Of a DNA stretch of 64,000 nucleotides, positions 8,542-64,000 are shown piece after piece. Source of the DNA: Polyangiaceae bacterium (lineage in GTDB: Bacteria > Myxococcota_A > Polyangia > Polyangiales > Polyangiaceae). The notes beneath the pieces were generated by a model. That model had not been told where the DNA came from. It saw only the letters and a program-made list of their open reading frames with translations, and did no database searches. Both the position numbers and the translations under genes were made by a program. The stretch covers positions 1 through 64,000 of the forward strand of contig JANRKO010000019.1 in NCBI GenBank assembly GCA_033763455.1, written 5' to 3'. Position 1 is the first letter of the stretch; each line of letters begins with the position of its first letter.

Positions 8542-10839
8542 TCAAGCTTTAACCAACGAAAGCCGAGGTGCCGCGCCGAAGGCCGCAAGATGGCCGCTTT
8601 CCTCGGCCACGTACACATCCGAGCGATCGTCGACCCGCACCAGATCAGGAACCAGATCGGTGGGAACGGTTCCCAGCATTTCTCCTGTTTTGGGCTGCAT
8701 CACGTGTACTTGATGTTGGGGTACGAAGAGAACGCCGCTCCGCAGTACGGGCTGCAACCTCCGGGGCTGATCCGCCTCCACCTGGTGGGAAAAGGCGTGA
8801 GAAAAACGCACTGCACCGGTATTGGCGTCTAGCCCCACCAACATGCCGGTGCTGCTATTGGCTATCAGCGTATCGTCGACAGACGTAAAAGCCGTCGTGA
8901 CTGAGCCCAGCCCAGGATCCTGTTCCCAAGCGGCGCTTCCTGTGTCACGCCGGAACGCCTGGGCACCGGTGCCTCGACGATCTCGGGTGGGAACAATAAC
9001 GGTCGTCGAAGTCAGAAGGGGGAGCTGACCGGCAAGAGGGGACGTATTGATCTCTTCAGTCCAGCGTACGGCACCTGACCAAAGATCGAGGTGGTAGATC
9101 TTTGCGGGCCCCACAGGCCCTCCGCAGATCGCGAAGGCCCCATCGCGATCGAGCGCAATGTCTCCGGTAAAGGGGAGCCTTTCGCGCACCCTCCACACGA
9201 CGTCGCCGGTTGTGACATCAAGGGCAAAAAGCGCAGAATCTCCGCCTGAAACTAGGAGCAGTTTTCCCGCGCGCTTCATGCGAAAGTTTGCCGCCCTCCG
9301 CGACGTGTAACGCCAGCAGAGCTCGCCGCTCTGAAGATCCAGCGCACAAATGGAGCGTTCGCCTTCGGCGACAATCAGAAGTTTCGGCAGCCCAGGGGCG
9401 TGAACAACGGCGCCGCTCGGGGTACCGCTGGAGCGCGGCGCAATGAACGTTCCAAAGCGAACATTGCCGGAGTCGAGTTCGTGGAGGCACACGAGCCCAT
9501 CTTGATGCCAACGCACCACGCCGAGCGGAGTGAGCACGGTTACGCCCGGGCGAGTGGCTGCACGCCACATAATGTCTCCGCTTTGCGAGTCGAGGCTGCA
9601 CAATTCGCGTGCGGCACCGACCACTATGCGATCCCCGTGAAGGAATACCGCTCTTAGATCCAACGTCGGGACCGCTGCCACCCAGCGAGCCATGAAGCGC
9701 ATCCTGCCGGTGGCTGTTCCTTGGGGGGAAGCCTTGGGTGTGGCAGGCAGGCCAAAGGCGCGATAATTCTCTGCATTCGCATTGATCAAGGAGTCGTCTG
9801 CTAAAAACTCGGTGAGCTGCTCTTGGAGCCGCTGTGCCTGATTTTGCAGATTCACCAGCCGAAGGTTCTGCGCTTGGCCGGCGTCGGATGCCTGAAAAGC
9901 ATCGACGAGGCTGAGTGCGAACGCAGTGGCAGTTTGCGCGAGCTCCAGAGGGCTGATCTTGGGGAACGTGAGCGCTCCACTCTTGCTGGGCCCGGATACC
10001 GTAAGCCGGAGCGTGTCTTCAATATGTGTCCGTTGGATCCCCAAACGAAGGGGTGCGCAGTCGACTCGACGAAATAGCGGCCGGTGGGAGCGCATGGCGT
10101 CGAAGACATCCTCCCCGAGCAACAAGAAGCACTCGGCGAACAGAAAGGGATACACGCCTGTGAACTCGTAGTCGCGTCGGTGTGCCGTCACGGTAAGAAC
10201 ACCTCGACACAGAAGCGCGTGAAGATCGGTACGCTCAAGCCGTTCGCCCGACGGTGCGCCTTCTCTAGAACGAGGCTGCGGTGCGCGAACCTCAGTCTTG
10301 AGGGACACCCCGAAGTCCGCATTGTCGCGGGCGACGATTTCAACGGGTACCGTGCGGCGTCGTGCACGTCCGGCGAAAGGGCGGGCTCGTCCCAACGTCC
10401 TTCGTGCACTCAGCAACGCTCCCGTTAGACCACGTGGTGCTTCGGCTATGCGCGCCTCATCAAGCAGCTGCGTGAGCACTTCAGTAAAGGCTGCCAGCGT
10501 TACCCGACGTTCGAACATGCCGACTTCAGGAGAACGCCCGGTGGTGTAACTCGACAGCAGTAGATCCTCGCCGTCCACCTCAAGCCCCAACTCCCAGGGT
10601 TGGTCACTTGCATAAAGACGAATACTGCGGCGAAGCGCGCTGCCGGTGCCAAGCGCCATGACCGCTTGGGAGACTTCAGCAAGTACACCGAAGGCGTCTT
10701 TGTCGGTCTGTTCCATCGCCTGGCTATTGCCCTCAAAGAACCAATCCAAGAGGGATCCAAGCGGGCCCGGTGATTTGACGCGGTCGGAGGGGGACGGTTG
10801 TGGGGCTACAACGTGTAGGGCGGTCATCGGTGAGCCCAT
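8542..10839 (-). CDS. PQQ-like beta-propeller repeat protein
   Basis: Repeated ALDxxxGxxxW motifs (SLDSQSGDIMWR, ALDLQSGELCWR, ALDVTTGDVVWR). Confidence 0.85.
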   Translation of the reverse strand: MGSPMTALHVVAPQPSPSDRVKSPGPLGSLLDWFFEGNSQAMEQTDKDAFGVLAEVSQAVMALGTGSALRRSIRLYASDQPWELGLEVDGEDLLLSSYTTGRSPEVGMFERRVTLAAFTEVLTQLLDEARIAEAPRGLTGALLSARRTLGRARPFAGRARRRTVPVEIVARDNADFGVSLKTEVRAPQPRSREGAPSGERLERTDLHALLCRGVLTVTAHRRDYEFTGVYPFLFAECFLLLGEDVFDAMRSHRPLFRRVDCAPLRLGIQRTHIEDTLRLTVSGPSKSGALTFPKISPLELAQTATAFALSLVDAFQASDAGQAQNLRLVNLQNQAQRLQEQLTEFLADDSLINANAENYRAFGLPATPKASPQGTATGRMRFMARWVAAVPTLDLRAVFLHGDRIVVGAARELCSLDSQSGDIMWRAATRPGVTVLTPLGVVRWHQDGLVCLHELDSGNVRFGTFIAPRSSGTPSGAVVHAPGLPKLLIVAEGERSICALDLQSGELCWRYTSRRAANFRMKRAGKLLLVSGGDSALFALDVTTGDVVWRVRERLPFTGDIALDRDGAFAICGGPVGPAKIYHLDLWSGAVRWTEEINTSPLAGQLPLLTSTTVIVPTRDRRGTGAQAFRRDTGSAAWEQDPGLGSVTTAFTSVDDTLIANSSTGMLVGLDANTGAVRFSHAFSHQVEADQPRRLQPVLRSGVLFVPQHQVHVMQPKTGEMLGTVPTDLVPDLVRVDDRSDVYVAEESGHLAAFGAAPRLSLVKA

Positions 10840-53280: not shown

Positions 53281-55254
53281 CTACGCGCCGCGCAGCGTCA
53301 CCGTGCTGAGCGGGTCAATGCCCAAATCTTCCGAAAGATCGTTGAAGCACACCACGTGGTAATCGGGGTGCTCGGTGGCTAGCAGCTTTCTTACGAAGCG
53401 GCGGATGCTTGGTTGAGTGAAGATGACAGTGGGGCGGCCCTCTGCTGGCGGTGAGGTTTGAATGGTCTTAGCGACGGCCCGCACGATGTCCCTGCCGGTT
53501 GCTGGGGAGAGTGCCAGGAACTGCCCTGCGTTGGTTTTTACAAGAGCATCTTTGATAGCCTGTTCGATGGTGGCATCGAGCAAGTAAACGCCGAGGCGCT
53601 TATGTTCTCCGCTTAGGCGATGCGTGGTGCTGCGTTTTAGGGCACTGCGAGCGAGCTCGGCGAGCTCTGCCGGTGGGCGCTCGTTGCCGGGGGCTTGAGT
53701 GAGGGCGTCTAGAATGGTGCGAAGATCCCGAATGCTCACCTTTTCTTGAACGAGTGAGCGAAGAACCTCAGCCAACACGGGAACATCTGCCGGTTTGGGT
53801 AGCTGACGAGCTCCCGCGGTGCTCACACTCTGAAGTGCGTCCAAAAGCGATTGGGTCTCCGTGATGTTGATGAAATCCCCGGCGCGCTGCTTGAAAATCT
53901 CGACCAACTCCGCCGTTAGCCAGGACGCTAACGTGTCCAGATCTCTAATCTCAGTCGGCAAAGTAGCGCGCTTTAACGGCACTTCGTGGACGGAGAACAG
54001 AACTTCGTCCGGGCCGAGCTCGGGGGCAACCTGCAGCGTGCCGGTCGGGATGGCGACTCCGAGCTCGGAAAATATGAGGGCTCGGGCGGAAGCAACTGCA
54101 CGAGTCAACTCGGAGTTGTTGCTCTCGGTGGGGCGTACTCCGCCGCCAAGATGCAAAATCGGGTCCCGCCCGAAACTCACAGACCATGGCACCACCACCG
54201 GCAAGAACCGCGGCTCGCCGTTTACCCAGTCCACGGGCGCGGTCACCTTCGCACTTGGAGTGCGCAAAAGGGTGCGGCTCCGTGCGCGGGAAGCTGCCAA
54301 AAGTAGCACTCCGATAACCAGGAAAGGCAAAGCCGGAAGCCCTGGAATTGCCGCCAAAAGCAGGATGAGCGCGCCGGCGGCGGCTAGAGCTTTCGGTTGC
54401 CCCAGCAATTGTCCCGCCAGATCGGTCCCGAGCGATGTTTCTCCCTCTTCGCTGGCAACACGCGTCACCAAGATGCCGGCTGCTGTCGTAATAACCAACG
54501 CGGGGATCTGCGCGACCAAGCCATCCCCGATGGTCAGCAACCCGTAGCGCTTCAGGGCCACGAGCGGGTCCAGGTGCTGCTGCCCCACGCCAATGGCAAG
54601 GCCTGCCCCAATGTTCACGAGAGTGATCACGAGCGCCGCGATGGTATCCCCCTTCACGAACTTCATCGCTCCGTCCATCGCTCCGTAAAATTGGCTCTCC
54701 CGTTCGAGTCGCTGGCGGCGGCGCTTCGCTTCCGCGTTATCGATCGCTCCCGAGCGGAGATCGGCATCGATGGCCATTTGTTTTCCCGGCATCGCATCGA
54801 GCGTGAAGCGGGCACCCACTTCAGCGACCCGTTCGCTCCCCTTGGCGATCACCACAAACTGAATGATCGTCAAGATCAGGAAAATTACGGCTCCCACGAC
54901 GTAGTTGCCCCGCACCACAAAGCTGCCAAACGCATGGATCACCTCGCCGGCGTCAGCCTGCAGCAGGATCAGCCGGGTGGAGGAAACGTTGAGGGCCAAG
55001 CGGATCAGCGTGGTAATCAGCAAAACGCTAGGAAAAGCCGCAATCTTGAGTGCGTTGGCGACGTACAAAGATACTAAAAGAATGGCGACGGAAATGCCCA
55101 GGTTGGCCGTGAGCAACAAATCCAAGAGCCACGTGGGCAGCGGCACAATCATGAGCCCCACCACGCTGAGCACCACTGCGCCCAGCACCAGATCTGGAAG
55201 ATGGAGCTTCTTTTGGGGCAGCGGCGGCGAGAGCTTGGCGAGGGAAGGGAGCAT
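53281..55254 (-). CDS. FlhA/SctV-family type III export gate protein
   Basis: RLALNVSSTRLIL, ERVAEVGARFTLDAMPGKQMAIDADL, FYGAMDGAMKFVKGD, IGDGLVAQIP, VSIRDL. Confidence 0.95.
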   Translation of the reverse strand: MLPSLAKLSPPLPQKKLHLPDLVLGAVVLSVVGLMIVPLPTWLLDLLLTANLGISVAILLVSLYVANALKIAAFPSVLLITTLIRLALNVSSTRLILLQADAGEVIHAFGSFVVRGNYVVGAVIFLILTIIQFVVIAKGSERVAEVGARFTLDAMPGKQMAIDADLRSGAIDNAEAKRRRQRLERESQFYGAMDGAMKFVKGDTIAALVITLVNIGAGLAIGVGQQHLDPLVALKRYGLLTIGDGLVAQIPALVITTAAGILVTRVASEEGETSLGTDLAGQLLGQPKALAAAGALILLLAAIPGLPALPFLVIGVLLLAASRARSRTLLRTPSAKVTAPVDWVNGEPRFLPVVVPWSVSFGRDPILHLGGGVRPTESNNSELTRAVASARALIFSELGVAIPTGTLQVAPELGPDEVLFSVHEVPLKRATLPTEIRDLDTLASWLTAELVEIFKQRAGDFINITETQSLLDALQSVSTAGARQLPKPADVPVLAEVLRSLVQEKVSIRDLRTILDALTQAPGNERPPAELAELARSALKRSTTHRLSGEHKRLGVYLLDATIEQAIKDALVKTNAGQFLALSPATGRDIVRAVAKTIQTSPPAEGRPTVIFTQPSIRRFVRKLLATEHPDYHVVCFNDLSEDLGIDPLSTVTLRGA

Positions 55255-57317: not shown

Positions 57318-57463
57318 GGCGCCTTCTAGCCTCGGGTTTAGCGGTTTTCTTGGCCGTGCACCGAGGCTTCCGGTAGCGATTCAGGGCACACACGGATGTT
57401 CAAAGCGCTTTGCCGCGTTCCTTGAACATCGAACGTGCCCCACCGCACTCGAAGGAGCAACCA

Positions 57464-58531
57464 GTGAAGAAACAGAAGCGCATCGCCGTCCTCATGGGTG
57501 GCACGTCAGCTGAACGTGAAGTCTCCCTCAAGTCAGGGCAGGCGATTGCGGCGGCCTTAGAGGCCTCTGGCCACGCCGTGGTGCGCGTAGATCTTGGCTC
57601 CGGCAAAGATGTGCTTTCTGCGCTCAGCAAAGTGGAGATGGATGTAGCCGTGCTGGCGTTGCATGGCCGCCTCGGAGAAGATGGCTGCGTGCAGGGTCTC
57701 TTGGAAGTGCTGGGGGTGCCTTACACGGGCTCCAGCGTGCTTTCCAGCGCATTGGCGATGGATAAGGTGAAGGCCAAGGAGCTCTTTCGCCTCCACAATA
57801 TCCCCACGCCGCCCTACTACGTGGTCACCGATCCTCTCGGTGTGCGCGAGTTGCACGGTTCTTTCGGCTTCCCGGTGATTGTAAAGCCTCGGCGTGAAGG
57901 CTCCAGTGTTGGTCTCGCCAAGGCCAATAGCCTCGAAGAACTGGAGGCAGCTGTGAAGGTGGCCTTCGAGCACGATAGCTCGGTGTTGGTTGAGCGCTTT
58001 GTGCAAGCCAGCGAAGTGGCCGTTGGCCTTTTGAACGGCAAGGTGCTGGGCGCCATCGAGATCGCCCCGAAGAAGGGCATTTACGACTACGAAGCCAAAT
58101 ACACACCGGGCATGACCGAATATTTCCTGCCGGCACGCCTATCCAACGCACGCCTACGGGGTATTACTCACTTAGCAGAGCGCGCGGTGCAGGCCTTGGA
58201 AGCCACGGGCGCCGTACGTGTCGATCTTCTCGTCACCGAAGGTCAGAACGAATACGTGCTCGAGGTGAATACGCTCCCAGGCATGACCGAAACGAGTCTG
58301 CTCCCCAAGATTGCAGGATGGGCAGGGCTTGGCTTCGCAGAGCTTTGCGAGGCTATTGTCGACACTGCTACGCTGCACACGCACGCCCCCGCTGGTCAGC
58401 GCAAAGCACGCGCCACCGAAGTTGATACAGACGGCGAATTCGGTTTGTCTCAAGCGGCTGTGGCTGAGTTCGAACTCGAAGACGATCGTTATGAAGTCAC
58501 CGAACACGACTTCATCGCAGCCGTAGGTTGA
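57464..58531 (+). CDS. ddl: D-alanine--D-alanine ligase
   Basis: GGTSAEREVSL, LHGRLGEDG, EGSSVG, YDYEAKY, EVNTLPGMT. Confidence 0.96.
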   Translation: MKKQKRIAVLMGGTSAEREVSLKSGQAIAAALEASGHAVVRVDLGSGKDVLSALSKVEMDVAVLALHGRLGEDGCVQGLLEVLGVPYTGSSVLSSALAMDKVKAKELFRLHNIPTPPYYVVTDPLGVRELHGSFGFPVIVKPRREGSSVGLAKANSLEELEAAVKVAFEHDSSVLVERFVQASEVAVGLLNGKVLGAIEIAPKKGIYDYEAKYTPGMTEYFLPARLSNARLRGITHLAERAVQALEATGAVRVDLLVTEGQNEYVLEVNTLPGMTETSLLPKIAGWAGLGFAELCEAIVDTATLHTHAPAGQRKARATEVDTDGEFGLSQAAVAEFELEDDRYEVTEHDFIAAVG

Positions 58532-58703: not shown

Positions 58704-58780
58704 GTCCCCGTCGTCTAGCCGGCCCAGGACACGGCCCTTTCAAGGCTGTAACACGGGTTCAAATCCCGTCGGGGACGCCA
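58704..58780 (+). tRNA. tRNA-Glu(TTC)
   Basis: GTCCCCG acceptor stem, anticodon loop CTTTCAA, GGTTCAAATCC, ends GGGGACGCCA. Confidence 0.95.
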
Positions 58781-58850: not shown

Positions 58851-59342
58851 ATGAGCGACCCCAATCGACGTGCATTTCTGGGCGGCGCGGCCTTATTAGC
58901 CATTCCGGCGCTGGTTGAGAACTGCGGGGAGGGGACGGCTGTTGGCAAGAGCGCGGATGAGCGCGTCGCTGAGCTCATCGCGTTGAGCCGCGACCAGCAC
59001 GGCAAGCCGCACGTGGCGCGGGTGGCATTCCTCACGCCTGAGCGCACCAGCGGGACGCTTCCTGTTTCGGCCGCGGAGGCCGCTGATCTTCGGGCGGTGC
59101 TCGCTTCGGGTGATTTTAAGCTCTTCCAAGAACGGGGCCTACGCTTCGACAACAAGAAGTTCGTGTACATCCGTGAGAGTGAGGAGGGCACCGTGGTGCA
59201 CGCGGTGCGGCGCGGGGAGTTCGTAACGATTCGCAAGGCTCGCAGTGAGCTTGTGGTGGCAACCAGTGTGGACGGGATGGCGCACCCGCGCGCTGTCGAA
59301 GCCGTTTACCAGTACGTGCAACGCTCCGCGGCAATCGCCTGA
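58851..59342 (+). CDS. Profilin-like protein with twin-arginine signal peptide
   Basis: NRRAFLGG plus hydrophobic stretch; EAADL...GLRFDNKKFVYIR...VTIRKARSELVVA...GMAHPRAVEAV follows the profilin pattern; GAAGG RBS. Confidence 0.72.
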   Translation: MSDPNRRAFLGGAALLAIPALVENCGEGTAVGKSADERVAELIALSRDQHGKPHVARVAFLTPERTSGTLPVSAAEAADLRAVLASGDFKLFQERGLRFDNKKFVYIRESEEGTVVHAVRRGEFVTIRKARSELVVATSVDGMAHPRAVEAVYQYVQRSAAIA

Positions 59343-59356
59343 AGTTAGGAATAAGA

Positions 59357-60037
59357 ATGCACAAGCTTCAGCTCACACTGGCCGCACTGCTTTTTTGCGT
59401 ATTCGCCGCTGGCACAGCCAGCGCTGGAAGCTGCGAGCAGGAAGTGGTGGCAGAGTGCGTTGCCAATTCCTGCCCTACCTTTTGCAGGACGCTCGCCGAA
59501 GGCCACGTGGAGGCATGTAAGGTAGGGTGCACGGCACAAGATCGCTGTAAGCTTGCTCTATTTGGCGGCCAAGACCGCCCGGCGCAGGTCGAGCTGGATG
59601 CGCAGAAGCGCGAGCAGCTCATGAGTTGCCTCGCAGAGAACCGCAAGCAACCTGTCGTACCCAAGGAGCTCGGCAAACCGATCCGCACTGAGGCGGATTA
59701 CGTCGCCCCCTCTGAAGCGAAGACGAAAGCCGTCAAGCGCAGCAGCCTTAAGAACACCAAGGCAAGCAAGGCGGCGTGGAAAGCCCGCAAAGCTCGCTCA
59801 TTTGCTGAGCGCAAAGTTGGTTCAAAGCGCAAGGATCCGCTCACCTACGTGCCCCCGGCTGGGCCTGTGAAGTCTCCCCCGAGGCCTCCGCTTCCGAGGT
59901 CAGCACCTCCCGGGCCAATGCCGCCCAAGCCGATGCCACCGAAGCCGATGCCTCCCAAGCCCCGCCCACAGCCAGCGCCGCCGGCGCAAAGCCCGAGCGG
60001 CCAGCAGGCACCGAGTCCGGCGCCCGCGAGCCCCTGA
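59357..60037 (+). CDS. Secreted Cys-rich, basic, proline-rich protein
   Basis: Sec signal (ASA cleavage), 8 Cys, Lys/Arg-rich middle, (PMPPK)x3 Pro-rich tail; AGGA RBS; 14 nt after the profilin-like stop. Confidence 0.8.
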   Translation: MHKLQLTLAALLFCVFAAGTASAGSCEQEVVAECVANSCPTFCRTLAEGHVEACKVGCTAQDRCKLALFGGQDRPAQVELDAQKREQLMSCLAENRKQPVVPKELGKPIRTEADYVAPSEAKTKAVKRSSLKNTKASKAAWKARKARSFAERKVGSKRKDPLTYVPPAGPVKSPPRPPLPRSAPPGPMPPKPMPPKPMPPKPRPQPAPPAQSPSGQQAPSPAPASP

Positions 60038-60076
60038 TTACCCTACGCCTCCCTACGAAGCTGCGGGTAAGTTCGC

Positions 60077-61237
60077 TCAGAAGCACTTGCGGTGCACGAT
60101 CCCCGGGCCTGCCTCGTCGTACTCAGCCTTGGTGATCCACATCTGCTGGAAGGTGCTCAGGCTCGCAAGGATGGAGCCACCGATCCATACCGAATATTTG
60201 CGCTCGGGGGGCGCGATGACTTTGACCTTCATCGTTGGGGGAGCCAGGTTGGTCAATTCCTTTTGCATACGCTCGGCAATCCCAGGGAACATCGTGCTGC
60301 CGCCAGCCAGCACGAGGTTGCTGTATAGATCCGCGCGGATATCGACGTCGCACTTCATGATCGAGTTGTACGTGGTCTCGTGGATCCCCACGGCCTCCAT
60401 GCCCAAAAAGCTGGGTTGGAAGAGCGCTTCGGGGCAACGGAAGCGCTCGTTCCCGATCGTAATAACCTGCCCGTCCGGGAGCTCGTAGCTCTTTTCCAGA
60501 CTGCTTGAACTCGCTGCTGTCTGCATCTCCGCGTCAAAGTCTAGGGCTACGTAGGCGAGCTTCTCCTTGATATCTCGAACGATCTCACGCTCTGCAGTTG
60601 TCGTGAAGGAATAGCCTCGCTCAGTCAGAATCTTCATTAGGTAATCAGTGAGGTCGCGGCCTGCGAGGTCGAGCCGCAGGATCGCGTGGGGTAGGGCGTA
60701 ACCCTCGTAGATGGGCACCGTGTGGGTTATCCCGTCGCCACAGTCGAAAACCAATCCGGTGGTGCGCCCCGAAGCGTAGAGGGCAAGTACGGCCCCCATC
60801 GCCACGTACATGGCGGGCGTATTGAACGTTTCGAACATAATTTGCGTCATCTTCTCACGGTTCGCCTTGGGATTGAGCGGGGGTTCCGTGAGCAACACGG
60901 GGTGTTCTTCTGGCGCCACGCGCAGCTCGTTGTAAAACGCGTGGTGCCAGATCTTCTCCATGTCGTCCCAGTTGGTGACGATGCCGTGTTCGATCGGATA
61001 CTTGAGCGTCAAGATCCCGCGCTTGGCCTGCGCCTCGTCGCCCACGTAAGCGTCTTTCTGGCCCATCCCCACCATCACCCCCTGGTGGCGTGGGCGGCCT
61101 ACGATGCTCGGGAATACCGCCCGCGGCGCGTCGTCGCCAGCGAAGCCGGCCTTAATCATCCCTGAACCGTTGTCGACGACTAGGGCTTGGACTTCGCCCT
61201 CGGTTTGTCCGAGGACTGGGCTGGGAACGAGGGGCAT
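60077..61237 (-). CDS. Eukaryote-type actin
   Basis: [79 protein letters not shown]-terminal IVHRKCF; intronless, 386 aa. Confidence 0.99.
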
Positions 61238-61313
61238 GCCTCACGCTAACAGGAGAGCCTCGACGCGCACAATCGAGAGCACGTGCTGCTAACCGCAATT
61301 CACGGCAAAGTAG

Positions 61314-62720
61314 CTAACCGCTCGCTTCGCATGACCGCTGGATGGCCGAGTAGTGAGCATGTGCGGCGCGCAACATATGCTCATGCTCCGGGCTGAATGT
61401 ATCGATAATATCGAGGGCCCCCACCGGCCCAGCGCGGAACGCCAGCCAATCAGCCAGCATCCCACGCGCGCGCGCCTCGCCCGATACTGACAGCTGGAGT
61501 TCTTCCCTCCACACATCCGCCACTGATGCGATCCCCAAACGATCGAGCTCATCAGCATCGAGCGCATACCAGCGAGCCCGCTTCAGGGCCTCGCTCACAT
61601 CTCCATGAGCCACGGTCACCTCGATCGCGCGCTCAGGATCCGCGAGCAGCCATACCAACTTATCGCGTCGGAGCGGAGCGTCCTTTGGCAGCGGAAAGGC
61701 CAGCTTGGCTCGCTCACCATCCGGTGGCCCAGGCACAACGAACCCAGCGTAGACCCAGCGCTCCGTTGGCGTACGGCGCCCGTAAAACATCCGAACCGCC
61801 TCGCCCGCAGTGTAGTTCATGCCGGCAACTGCACGCAGAGAGTTGCCCTCTAGGAATGTGCTCTCGGCGCCCAGCGTTTCGTCGTGGTCCAGCAGATCCC
61901 AAAGCGGCACCAGGGCGAGCTCATCGGGTACGGCGGTTTGGCGGGACGAAAGGATCGCCCCTGCCCAAAGCCAACGCTGCAGCGTGAACGCCTCGAGCGG
62001 TAGCGGGCGTTTGGCGGGCTCCGTCAGCCGTAAGCGGTGGTGCGCGATGCAATAAAGCTGCAGCACTCCGGCGAGGAAGCTTCTTCCCATGTTTGCAGCC
62101 ACGAGGTGTGAGCCAGGCGAACGCGGCCAGCTGAGCGCCGTTCCGGCCACTTCTCCGGGCAGCGCTGCAACATAAGGTGCCCACGTGTTGGTAGCCTCGT
62201 TTACGTAGCGGGCCCGGAGCAACCAAAGCATCAAATTGCCTGGCCCGAAAAGCGGTGCTTCTTGGAGCCATGGGCCCAATATCGGATCAGCGAAAACGTC
62301 GCCGTTGCGCAACATCGCACTCAACGGCACCTCAACCAACGTGGCGCCCCTGGCGATTGGCGCTGTCGCCTTAACGCTTGCACCCTTGGGTGTTGCGAGC
62401 AAACGCAGCCCGGGCGCGAACCGAACGCCGTGCAAGGCCGCCCACGCGGCCAGTGCATCTAACGCCTGTTGAGATACCGGGAGCGATGGTGGATCCATGG
62501 GTTGGCACTTTTGCACCAACGCCGAAGCTTCGTGCAAATCAGGGAGTTCGAAGCTCTCCGCGTCCCAGGCCACGGCACGCCGAAGCCCGGCGATGCGCGC
62601 GAGCAGATGGGCAAGATCATCGATCGCCGTTTGCGCCTGCGCCTCGGAAGAGGCTTCGTTGGGGGAGTCGGGTTCCAGGTGATCATCTGAGCTAAGGGCG
62701 GGGAGCGGAACAAGTGGCAA
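61314..62720 (-). CDS. SETD3-like SET-domain methyltransferase (Rubisco-LSMT class)
   Basis: KATAPIARGATLVEVP, WAPYVAALP, FTLQRWLWA...SSRQ, LALVPLWDLLDH, GEAVRMFYG, GFV; TTG start uncertain. Confidence 0.8.
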   Translation of the reverse strand: MPLVPLPALSSDDHLEPDSPNEASSEAQAQTAIDDLAHLLARIAGLRRAVAWDAESFELPDLHEASALVQKCQPMDPPSLPVSQQALDALAAWAALHGVRFAPGLRLLATPKGASVKATAPIARGATLVEVPLSAMLRNGDVFADPILGPWLQEAPLFGPGNLMLWLLRARYVNEATNTWAPYVAALPGEVAGTALSWPRSPGSHLVAANMGRSFLAGVLQLYCIAHHRLRLTEPAKRPLPLEAFTLQRWLWAGAILSSRQTAVPDELALVPLWDLLDHDETLGAESTFLEGNSLRAVAGMNYTAGEAVRMFYGRRTPTERWVYAGFVVPGPPDGERAKLAFPLPKDAPLRRDKLVWLLADPERAIEVTVAHGDVSEALKRARWYALDADELDRLGIASVADVWREELQLSVSGEARARGMLADWLAFRAGPVGALDIIDTFSPEHEHMLRAAHAHYSAIQRSCEASG

Positions 62721-62889
62721 ACGAGGGAGCTGTTAAGTAGCAGGAGTGCAAATGTCCTGCGCAGGCATATTTTGAGGGCAAACAACCGTATTTTGACCTG
62801 GTACAGGCTGGTGATGGCACCCTACCATTTGAGTTGGATTTTCCCGCTATTGCGCAGAGTTGAAATCCCAGCCCGGAAATGGTGAACCT

Positions 62890-64000
62890 GTGAAGTTATC
62901 GCCCGTTTTACCCCTAGGGGTGGTCTTGGTCAGCCTCAGTGTTGGTTGCTCTGGGCTGTTTGAGTCTAACAGCGGCCGAAAGTCGTCCTCGAACGGCAAC
63001 GAGCCAGCCGAGGCCGGCACAACGCCTGCATCTCCCACAGACACGCCTCCAGGTCCGGGCCCAAGCGAAATGCCCACCGTGCCCACCGCGCCGTCGCCTG
63101 GCGCTTGCACGCTTCCGGGTACACCCCTTGCGGTGCAAACGCGCCGGCTTACCCCTCGGCAGTACCAAACGACACTGGAAGCCGGGCTTGGGTTGAGCTT
63201 GCAGCCGGCTGAATTGCCTCAGTTTCAAGACGACAATCCCACCATCGGGCTTGCCAACGATCCTCAGAAGCTGCGCATCACCACTGTCTCGGTAGACAGC
63301 CTTTATGCCTCGCTGCTTGCTGTGTCCAAGCGGTCACTGGCTAACGTTTCTGATGTGCAGAGTTGTATCTCAGCTACGGGCACGGCGTGCTTCGAACAAC
63401 TTATCGATAGCTTAGGTCAGAAGTTGTGGCGAAGGCCTGTGGCAGCGGAGGAAAAGGCGGATTTGTTAGCGGGGGTGGCGAGCGTAGCTGCGGCTTCCGG
63501 TACGCGCGAAGATCAGGCGGATTTTCTCTTGCAAGCGCTGCAGTTTTCCCCCAATACGCTGTACCGGCTGGAGCTGGGGGATGCGACGGGCAACCTCACT
63601 GATCAAGAGCTCGCTAGCCTGCTTTCGTACACATTTTGGGACGCACCCCCAGATGCGGCGCTGTTCGCGGCCGCTCAGGCCGGTACGCTTCACACCCCAG
63701 GGGTGCTGAAGTCTGAAGCTCAGCGTTTGGCTCAGGATCCCCGTTTCCCGAAGGCGGTTGCGGGCTTTCTTTGGGATTTTTTGAAGCTCGAGAATATCTA
63801 CACGAAAAAGAAAGACGATACGCTTGGCCTCACGCCAGCGGTACGTTCCACGCTGGCGGCCTCCGCATCGGGTACGCTCGACCAAGCGCTCACTAGCGGG
63901 CAAGCTTCGCTTCTCGACGTGTTCTCCGGGGTGAGTTTCCCCGTGAACGATGAATTGGCACCGTTTTTCGGAGTGCCGGCGGTTGGCACTAGCCAGCTAA
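62890..64000 (+). CDS. DUF1587/DUF1595/DUF1592-type lipoprotein, runs off the window
   Basis: Manual translation from GTG 62890: lipobox SVGC, RRLTPRQY, LWRRP, FSPNTLYRLE, ELASLLSYTFWDAPPD; open to the end (absent from ORF track). Confidence 0.85.
   Translation, partial: MKLSPVLPLGVVLVSLSVGCSGLFESNSGRKSSSNGNEPAEAGTTPASPTDTPPGPGPSEMPTVPTAPSPGACTLPGTPLAVQTRRLTPRQYQTTLEAGLGLSLQPAELPQFQDDNPTIGLANDPQKLRITTVSVDSLYASLLAVSKRSLANVSDVQSCISATGTACFEQLIDSLGQKLWRRPVAAEEKADLLAGVASVAAASGTREDQADFLLQALQFSPNTLYRLELGDATGNLTDQELASLLSYTFWDAPPDAALFAAAQAGTLHTPGVLKSEAQRLAQDPRFPKAVAGFLWDFLKLENIYTKKKDDTLGLTPAVRSTLAASASGTLDQALTSGQASLLDVFSGVSFPVNDELAPFFGVPAVGTSQL

Follow-up and report, generated by a model that had tools for sequence, protein, structure and literature searches.

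The window analysed here, a stretch of 64,000 nucleotides, is the opening part of a 243,083-bp contig (JANRKO010000019.1) of a Polyangiaceae bacterium (assembly GCA_033763455.1; 92 contigs, 6.56 Mb, GC content 0.593). About 60 kb into that contig it carries four contiguous genes that code for an actin of eukaryotic type, a divergent profilin, a putatively exported cysteine-rich protein and a SET-domain protein closer to SETD3 than to the other SET enzymes. We favour, with a probability of roughly 0.55, the reading that these genes form a eukaryote-derived chromosomal cassette, selected in a few Myxococcota, which encodes an actin-handling system with an extracytoplasmic step rather than a plain cytoplasmic cytoskeleton. 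The actin, profilin-like and SET products are recognizable by sequence or fold, and the genes are linked, selected and resident in a bacterial chromosome. A previous reading of the letters and open reading frames (ORFs) of the window, hereafter the sequence-only reading, had described four contiguous, intronless genes in two convergent pairs, and the ORFs, all intact, agree with it to the nucleotide and strand: the profilin-like gene (58851-59342, +; 163 amino acids (aa), with a twin-arginine-type leader at about residues 1-33 and the fold at about 34-163), the Cys-rich gene (59357-60037, +; 226 aa), the actin gene (60077-61237, -; 386 aa) and the SETD3-like gene (61314-62720, -; 468 aa, without the C-terminal GNAT region of its relatives). 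The Cys-rich gene starts 14 bp past the profilin-like gene, and given this spacing the two are probably co-transcribed; 76 bp separate the end of the SET gene from the actin gene. The start codon of the SET gene is uncertain, the TTG at 62720 being the first possible start. Read from the first start codon, the actin (61211-61237, -) and the SET protein (62694-62720, -) both begin with MPLVP-x-P-x-L, which may be chance, a shared signal or an artefact of start-codon calling. A scan of the cassette for promoters and terminators returned nothing beyond shuffled controls.

The cassette is not confined to this genome. An actin query over one-genome-per-species prokaryotic collections yielded 76 loci, in all of which the cassette neighbours were searched by tblastn. 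Profilin-like and Cys-rich genes occur in three of them, L013 (Kofleriaceae), L016 and L045 (both 'Myxococcales'), all labelled Myxococcota, and a SETD3-like gene in L013 and L045; the L016 contig is 5.9 kb long and has the profilin gene at its very start. The sequence-only reading had called for a search of Myxococcota genomes for the same neighbourhood, and linked genes in three other assemblies are what this search provided. Gene order is SET> actin> <Cys <Pfn in the window and in L045, actin> <Cys <Pfn SET> in L013, and Pfn> Cys> actin> in L016, the Cys-rich gene always lying behind the profilin gene on the same strand. The flanks are an aminotransferase and a hybrid histidine kinase in L013, and ABC-F, an AMP-binding enzyme and SppA in L045; between loci, the cassette genes are the sole common genes. 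Synonymous divergence (dS) and the ratio of nonsynonymous to synonymous divergence (dN/dS) between copies were estimated by the Nei-Gojobori method. For the actin, dS ranges from 0.7 to 1.4 and dN/dS from 0.10 to 0.26, and dN/dS is 0.19-0.32 for the SET protein, 0.23-0.60 for the profilin-like protein and 0.17-0.72 for the Cys-rich protein, which indicates that all four genes are under purifying selection inside bacteria. Taken together, the rearranged order, the unrelated flanks, the near-saturated synonymous sites and dN/dS values below 1 argue for an old, selected cassette and not for an assembly artefact. Protein searches added eight further members of the SET family and eight further profilin-like proteins, with Kofleriaceae, 'Deltaproteobacteria' and Myxococcota as named sources.

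The actin of the cassette matches the Pfam family Actin at 494.5 bits over profile positions 3-410, has Dictyostelium and beta/gamma actins as its best matches in the PDB (E ~1e-234) and is 89-91% identical to the best full-length eukaryotic actins. Among the residues that build the nucleotide site of actin or serve its polymerisation, D11, K18, D154, H161, K213, G302, K336, the D-loop residues M44 and M47, H73 and C374 are canonical. The N-terminus carries an 11-residue, non-acidic extension relative to conventional actin. Actin Gln137 positions the hydrolytic water at the catalytic site; it is replaced by Gly in the window (residue 148, 60796-60798) and by Pro in L016, and is not Gln in 10 of 16 actins of bacterial context, against none of four contaminant-type actins. 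Slowed hydrolysis of adenosine triphosphate (ATP) may be a recurrent outcome of the life of actin in bacteria. No clear donor lineage emerged: the nearest neighbours, at 89-92% identity, are actins of animals, plants and protists alike, and in an actin tree built by a quick method, 19 of 38 inner branches are open, and a clade of the four module-linked actins is neither resolved nor rejected.

The profilin-like protein is more divergent, with a Pfam Profilin score of 30.4 bits against a cut-off of 25 over profile positions 33-118 only; the same family is matched by 11 of 11 members of the profilin-like family. For its AlphaFold2 (AF2) model, with a predicted local distance difference test (pLDDT) of 82, the top 37 Foldseek matches in the PDB are all profilins (best E 1.5e-7, template-modelling (TM) score up to 0.80 on the target). 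The sequence-only reading would have been abandoned had the neighbours of the actin not shown profilin and SETD3 folds, and Foldseek assigns the profilin-like protein to profilins and the SET protein to SETD3. A complex model of actin residues 12-386 with profilin-like residues 34-163 reached an ipSAE of 0.88, a mark attained by 116 of the 157 complexes of known structure and by 2 of the 215 mismatched pairs, against 0.01 for the best control, although, because profilin-actin complexes have already been solved, such a pass may mirror likeness to them and is not proof of binding. At least 90% of the contacts agree over three runs, and the partner has a pLDDT of at least 88. The modelled actin interface (177-185, 295-300, 362-366 and 380-386) corresponds to canonical positions 166-174, 284-289, 351-355 and 369-375, and the model thus puts the profilin-like protein on the barbed face of actin, at the canonical site. 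The N-terminal helix of the profilin-like protein (residues 35-45), to which the signal would be attached, is outside the modelled interface. The functional coupling of the genes that had been proposed from the sequence gains support from linkage that survives rearrangement, from purifying selection on all four genes and from this modelled canonical interface.

Ahead of the profilin fold lies an N-terminus of putative twin-arginine translocation (Tat) type, RRAFLGGAALLAIPALV, with the motif RRAFLGG; the criterion applied was an N-terminal motif of the S/T-R-R-x-F-L-K type followed by a mildly hydrophobic stretch. The twin arginine is present in all ten N-terminally complete relatives, and RRxFL in nine of them. 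One relative, P0015, matches TIGR01409 at 17.2 bits (cut-off 16.7) and is annotated at its source as a twin-arginine signal protein, and Pfam TAT_signal is matched at E<=1 by 8 of 11 family members, the window copy not being among them. TatC is present in the window's genome.

The second putatively exported product had been presented in the sequence-only reading as a secreted, proline-rich protein. The signal-like N-terminus and the Pro-rich end are both there in the window copy, but the prolines are not conserved: the Pro-rich C-terminus recurs partly in L013 and is missing in L016 and L045. What is conserved is an eight-Cys domain and a basic tail: each of the four orthologues begins with a hydrophobic stretch that resembles a signal, carries eight invariant cysteines (between residues 26 and 96 in the window copy) and has a Lys/Arg-rich tail of strongly basic character. 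Eight invariant cysteines are typical of proteins of oxidising compartments. The protein has no Pfam family and no usable Atlas match, and its structural matches all fall below a TM score of 0.33. A WH2/thymosin-like motif suggested by the letters LKNTK was considered and dropped, since it is not kept in the orthologues. Profilins bind poly-L-proline through a site formed by their N- and C-terminal helices, with conserved Trp and Tyr residues. This classical site is not evident in the profilin-like sequence, whose 163 aa include no Trp and, as conserved residues, only the C-terminal Y153 and Y155; with the Pro-rich tail unconserved and no Trp in the profilin-like protein, a link between the two products through poly-proline is weak.

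The SET protein has no Pfam family and no Pfam SET match at E<=10. Searched against the PDB by sequence, it retrieves SETD3 chains only (10 of 10 matches at E<=10, best 1.8e-15), and the profile of its family matches SETD3 at E 2.8e-22, the next SET enzyme, RuBisCO LSMT, following at 0.054. The fold gives the same ranking: Foldseek with the AF2 model (pLDDT 70) returned SETD3 at 1.5e-14, LSMT at 1.7e-10 and SETD6 at 5.3e-9, and VIA-align gave Z scores of 23.4, 17.1 and 16.7, respectively, with a root-mean-square deviation of 3.3-3.6 Å to SETD3 over 271-276 residues (model 24-316 on SETD3 19-315). The likeness extends to N-terminal helices that the LSMT and SETD6 alignments leave uncovered, at an identity of only 17-22% in structural alignments. 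Among 1.84 billion library representatives, scores below 1e-30 are confined to the family itself (four proteins) and are followed by a drop to 1e-20; the named members of the next clusters are a crab 'actin-histidine N-methyltransferase-like' protein and a choanoflagellate protein. That the SET protein is SETD3-like, as had been suggested from the letters, is thus borne out by sequence, family profile and fold, SETD3 being its closest SET enzyme, in sequence and fold also its closest solved relative.

Eukaryotic SETD3 is the N-tau-methyltransferase of actin His73 (PMC6289574). The human enzyme binds actin peptide 66-88, and PMC6400499 describes residues that matter for binding and catalysis: Asn256 and Tyr313 orient His73, Arg75 and Asn278 contact S-adenosylmethionine (AdoMet), Arg215 and Arg316 flank the substrate, and N278A nearly abolishes activity. 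We compared these residues in eight family members and in the 32 nearest outside relatives. Trp274, an active-site residue also tested in that paper, is kept in 8/8 family members (Trp in 26/32 outside), as are His279 of the conserved SET motif (32/32 outside) and Arg316 (30/32 outside); Tyr313 is kept in 7/8, including the window, and is Ser in one (Tyr in 32/32 outside). Other positions weigh against a standard SETD3 activity. Asn278 is Asp in 8/8 family members and Asn in 32/32 outside relatives, Asn256 is Thr in 6/8, including the window, and Asn in 2/8 (Asn in 30/32 outside), Arg215 aligns to Gln221 (Arg in 16/32 outside), and Arg75 is outside every sequence alignment obtained, for the family as for the outside relatives. 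Given the changes of Asn278 to Asp, mostly of Asn256 to Thr, and of Arg215 to Gln, the enzyme may be weak, altered or inactive.

A minority alternative to be taken seriously is therefore that the SET protein is a pseudoenzyme that binds or chaperones actin, or a methyltransferase for another residue or substrate. It is favoured by the family-wide Asp278, by Thr256 and the single Ser313, and by engineered changes of Asn255/256 that retarget human SETD3 (as the titles of entries 6v62, 6wk2 and 6ox5 indicate). Against it stand the purifying selection on the SET protein, the invariance of Trp274, His279 and Arg316, and the substrate side: His73 is kept in all four cassette-linked actins, and peptide 66-88 is unchanged (23/23 identical) in the window actin and in L016, and 21/23 identical in L013 and L045. 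Two myxobacterial actins unlinked to visible cassette genes have lost His73, to Arg in L033 (297-1421) and to Tyr in L053 (1024-2130). The protein is best described as a SETD3 relative under constraint, for which His73 methylation is not assured.

The relatives of the SET protein bring in a further candidate modification. A C-terminal GNAT region is present on five of the eight other SET-family members according to a precomputed Pfam list (four of seven in our own profile scan). P0003-P0007 are SETD3-like proteins that continue into a C-terminal double-GNAT region; P0008 is instead extended at its N-terminus, and P0002 (L013:12585-14768, Kofleriaceae) has an extension of GNAT length without a Pfam GNAT match, its Pro/Arg/Ser-rich tail looking frame-shifted. 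Elsewhere in the window's genome no orthologue of the GNAT part was found by tblastn, the best match (E 1e-4) being a generic GNAT, and against the PDB this part matches generic bacterial GNATs only (best E 0.004). Of 400 other genomes of the phylum, 50 match the family profile solely in its GNAT part (L095-L105 among the loci). Stand-alone, double-GNAT proteins of about 290-350 aa in Myxococcota resemble the GNAT part of the fusion. NAA80 is the actin-specific N-terminal acetyltransferase of animals. By analogy, a GNAT domain on SET orthologues beside actin may acetylate actin, although, unlike NAA80, it gives generic GNAT matches only and is absent from the window. In L045, where the SET gene has an intact GNAT region, the actin begins MSDDEPS, and in the GNAT-less window it has its long, non-acidic start, a suggestive pairing in two cases.

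What we infer about methylation, binding, export and the final site of action can be laid out as a series of steps. The actin would be made in the cytoplasm, and the SETD3-like protein would bind it at the His73 loop and, if active, methylate His73. In sister genomes, the fused GNAT would probably add an acetylation step, the GNAT domain having been lost from the window's genome or never having been there. The profilin-like protein would bind the barbed face of the actin monomer, as modelled, and the twin-arginine signal on the profilin-like protein and the Sec-type signal on the Cys-rich protein would direct the export of both. Two export signals suggest that at least half of the cassette acts outside the cytoplasm, be it in the envelope, in vesicles or in the medium, and an extracytoplasmic step is favoured because both the Tat motif and the cysteine pattern are conserved.

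Several observations weigh against this reading, in addition to the substitutions in the SET protein. Neither the actin nor the SET protein carries a signal, which would leave profilin and actin in different compartments unless they are co-exported. The window's profilin-like protein has no TAT_signal or TIGR01409 match at the E-values used, and its Tat motif was recognized by eye only. The cassette is also rare: queried with the actin, 60 relatives of the window's genome, three congeners among them, showed no cassette (1/61 genomes positive overall), and the SET part of the family profile has no match in 400 other genomes of the phylum (1/401 overall). Because of this rarity the cassette is taken to be dispensable. 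Among the five sequencing runs listed for the genome, none is recorded as RNA. The sequence-only reading had proposed a functional actin system, used as the bacterium's own filament or against eukaryotes; the coupling of the genes speaks for such a system, and the Tat motif complicates the plain cytoplasmic filament.

A cytoplasmic, domesticated actin cytoskeleton like that of Microcystis, in which the twin-arginine N-terminus would be non-functional, a membrane tether or used part-time, is possible but clearly less probable than an extracytoplasmic step. ActM and PfnM co-localise in an intracellular shell (PMC3254629), the profilin-like family is related to PfnM (phmmer E 8e-9, hhalign probability 96.7%), the actin and the SET protein are signal-less, and the actin uses preferred codons. 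PfnM, however, has no twin-arginine motif, whereas the motif with its hydrophobic stretch is found in 10/10 relatives of the cassette profilin, and the adjoining, probably co-transcribed gene codes for a signal-peptide protein with eight invariant cysteines. The genome also has no profile match to cofilin, gelsolin or FH2, a weak point, since control genomes were equally blank and the null result is thus no evidence of absence.

If, as we favour, there is an extracytoplasmic step, a tentative and rather doubtful extension would account for the signal-less actin. In known Tat hitch-hikers, such as E. coli hydrogenase-2 (HybO/HybC) and DmsAB, one subunit has the twin-arginine signal and a signal-less partner binds it before export. 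By analogy, the profilin-like protein, whose N-terminal helix is free of the modelled interface, could be a Tat carrier that binds folded, SETD3-matured ATP-actin and ferries it across the inner membrane, the polybasic Cys-rich protein, held by disulfide bonds, nucleating or bundling actin outside. If true, this would mean an extracytoplasmic actin polymer, or actin and profilin as vesicle cargo to eukaryotic prey or grazers, and the first actin system that works outside a cytoplasm.

Similarly doubtful is an anti-eukaryote mimicry kit, in which the exported profilin-like and polybasic Cys-rich proteins, possibly with matured actin, would perturb the actin of protists or fungi that are its prey or grazers. 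Export signals are indeed present on two of the four products, and the cassette actins are still 77-90% identical to eukaryotic actins despite near-saturated synonymous sites, as one would expect of an actin still required to fit eukaryotic partners; methylated at His73, and in sister genomes acetylated through the GNAT fusion, the actin would resemble host actin. Nevertheless, the actin has no evident secretion route, the cassette lacks a linked secretion system, and neither experiment nor lifestyle gives a hint in this direction. The FHIPEP (FlhA/SctV-type export gate) gene nearby, at 53281-55254 (-), stands apparently alone beside FIST and PP2C genes and belongs to the conserved core, not to the island.

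An assembly or binning artefact or eukaryotic contamination is very improbable, for although the source is a 92-contig metagenome-type assembly and other 'bacterial' assemblies contain many short actin contigs that are clearly contamination (one of them, L023, with an intron-like break), the cassette has bacterial core genes on either side within one 243-kb contig, host-like codon use and bacterial-type Tat and Sec signals on two genes, and turns up again in three independent assemblies, where bacterial genes flank it and the contigs are as long as 222 kb. Upstream on the same contig lie genes for DnaE, SMC, cytidylate kinase, ribosomal protein S1, the FHIPEP protein, FIST, PP2C and Ddl, and downstream those for DUF1592/DUF1588 and DUF1552 proteins, a 3-keto-disaccharide hydrolase and a beta-galactosidase. 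Scored for synonymous codon choice against 1,747 ORFs of the genome of at least 400 aa, the cassette genes rank at percentiles 97 (actin), 89 (profilin-like), 76 (Cys-rich) and 35 (SET), so that all four genes are host-like, as is the GC content of the cassette; the preferred codons of the actin would be compatible with high expression. Core-gene flanks, host-like codons and recurrence in other assemblies together uphold the proposed bacterial residence of the genes. The genome has an MreB of its own. Sequencing runs sharing its sampled words include a sediment metagenome (X1, 0.70) and a soil metagenome (X2, 0.25), from which no habitat claim is drawn.

The immediate surroundings of the cassette agree, by ARAGORN and Pfam, with the ddl/tRNA-Glu and DUF1592-type flanks given in the sequence-only reading. 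On the left, outside the cassette, are the core bacterial D-Ala-D-Ala ligase gene ddl (57410-58531, +), collinear with congeners, and the tRNA-Glu (UUC) gene found by ARAGORN (58704-58780, +), which forms the left boundary of the variable slot occupied by the cassette. On the right, also outside it, a DUF1595/DUF1592/DUF1588 gene (62860-64000, +) extends beyond the end of the window, with a DUF1552 gene behind it; the former falls within the same variable slot and has many paralogues in the genome. The congeners G001 and G003 (ddl at about 74-76% DNA identity) are collinear over FIST-PP2C-ddl-tRNA-Glu, have a phosphoesterase gene instead past the tRNA gene, and regain collinearity at the 3-keto-disaccharide hydrolase, at 66.3 kb of the contig, a comparison that places the cassette in a variable slot beside a tRNA gene. 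The cassette flanks show no direct repeat of the tRNA end, no meaningful inverted repeats and no att-like repeats.

The nearest known system is the ActM/PfnM island of Microcystis aeruginosa, reportedly described by Guljamow and colleagues in 2007. As in the cassette, an actin and a profilin derived from eukaryotes lie side by side on a variable chromosomal island of a bacterium (PMC3254629), and PfnM is detectably related to the cassette profilin. The differences are substantial. ActM is 64-65% identical to the cassette actin, which is itself about 90% identical to eukaryotic actins; PfnM matches Pfam Profilin at 104.5 bits from profile position 1 and has no signal, whereas the cassette profilin scores 30.4 bits behind a twin-arginine leader; and the 16.5-kb Microcystis locus has no SETD3-like or Cys-rich gene. 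BARP of Haliangium ochraceum is far more divergent and stand-alone, and is set beside the cassette actin by description only. It too is an actin of eukaryotic type in a myxobacterium (cited in PMC6906331). Compared with eukaryotic SETD3, the cassette SET protein keeps Trp274, His279, Tyr313 and Arg316 next to an actin with an unchanged 66-88 peptide, and departs from it in Asn278 (Asp), Asn256 (mostly Thr) and Arg215 (Gln), in being bacterial and, in most family members, in its GNAT fusion. In the full-text literature, subscription-only papers lying outside the scope, no bacterial actin linked to a SETD3-like gene and no profilin with a Tat signal was found, the matches relevant to the cassette being ActM/PfnM (PMC3254629) and mentions of BARP and ActM (PMC6906331); the suggestion that no known precedent includes an actin-modifying enzyme holds within that literature. 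The Tat motif on the profilin-like protein, the GNAT fusion in sister genomes, the family-wide Asp278 and the unconserved Pro tail are new points.

Actin is among the most constrained of eukaryotic proteins. The enzymes that mature it, SETD3 and NAA80, are recent discoveries and, to our knowledge, are counted as eukaryotic. Here a near-canonical actin, long under purifying selection, shares a bacterial cassette with a SETD3-like partner and with a profilin that bears a putative bacterial export signal. Such a minimal and genetically compact actin system could be rebuilt in E. coli. It also provides a natural experiment on which features of actin survive without its eukaryotic partner network, the recurrent loss of Gln137 being one example and the apparent retention of His73 only where a SET gene is linked a second, and actin may here be put to use outside the cytoplasm or against eukaryotes.

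The sequence-only reading knew of two bacterial precedents, ActM/PfnM and BARP. Such precedents are far more numerous, and bacterial actins of eukaryotic type look far more widespread than the two textbook cases, with representatives in genuine chromosomes of several bacterial phyla. Lone actins of eukaryotic type, 43-85% identical to that of the window, lie among bacterial genes on long contigs, including a complete Microcoleus chromosome. They come from cyanobacteria (L014, L015, L021, L028, L051), Gammaproteobacteria (L022, L068, L029), Myxococcota (L027, L053, L057, L033), Aureispira (L043) and Sessilibacter (L075), and a profilin or SET gene was not detected within about 4.5 kb of any of them. 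A different class is formed by contigs of 0.4-2 kb from isolate 'bacterial' and archaeal assemblies (L004-L011, L017, L018, L030-L031, L034-L042 and others), with actins 85-93% identical to that of the window, which are most simply explained as eukaryotic contamination of those assemblies. The actin with the intron-like break in L023 ('chromosome 21' of a Stappiaceae metagenome-assembled genome (MAG)) is of animal type. In L021, a cyanobacterial MAG, a 178-aa GNAT gene (9190-9726, -) is directly upstream of the lone actin and divergent from it, which may be coincidence. Finally, a divergent Polyangia actin in L057 (11425-13520; 51% identity) adjoins transposase fragments of the IS91 family and a phage-type integrase, which points to a mobile context for that actin.

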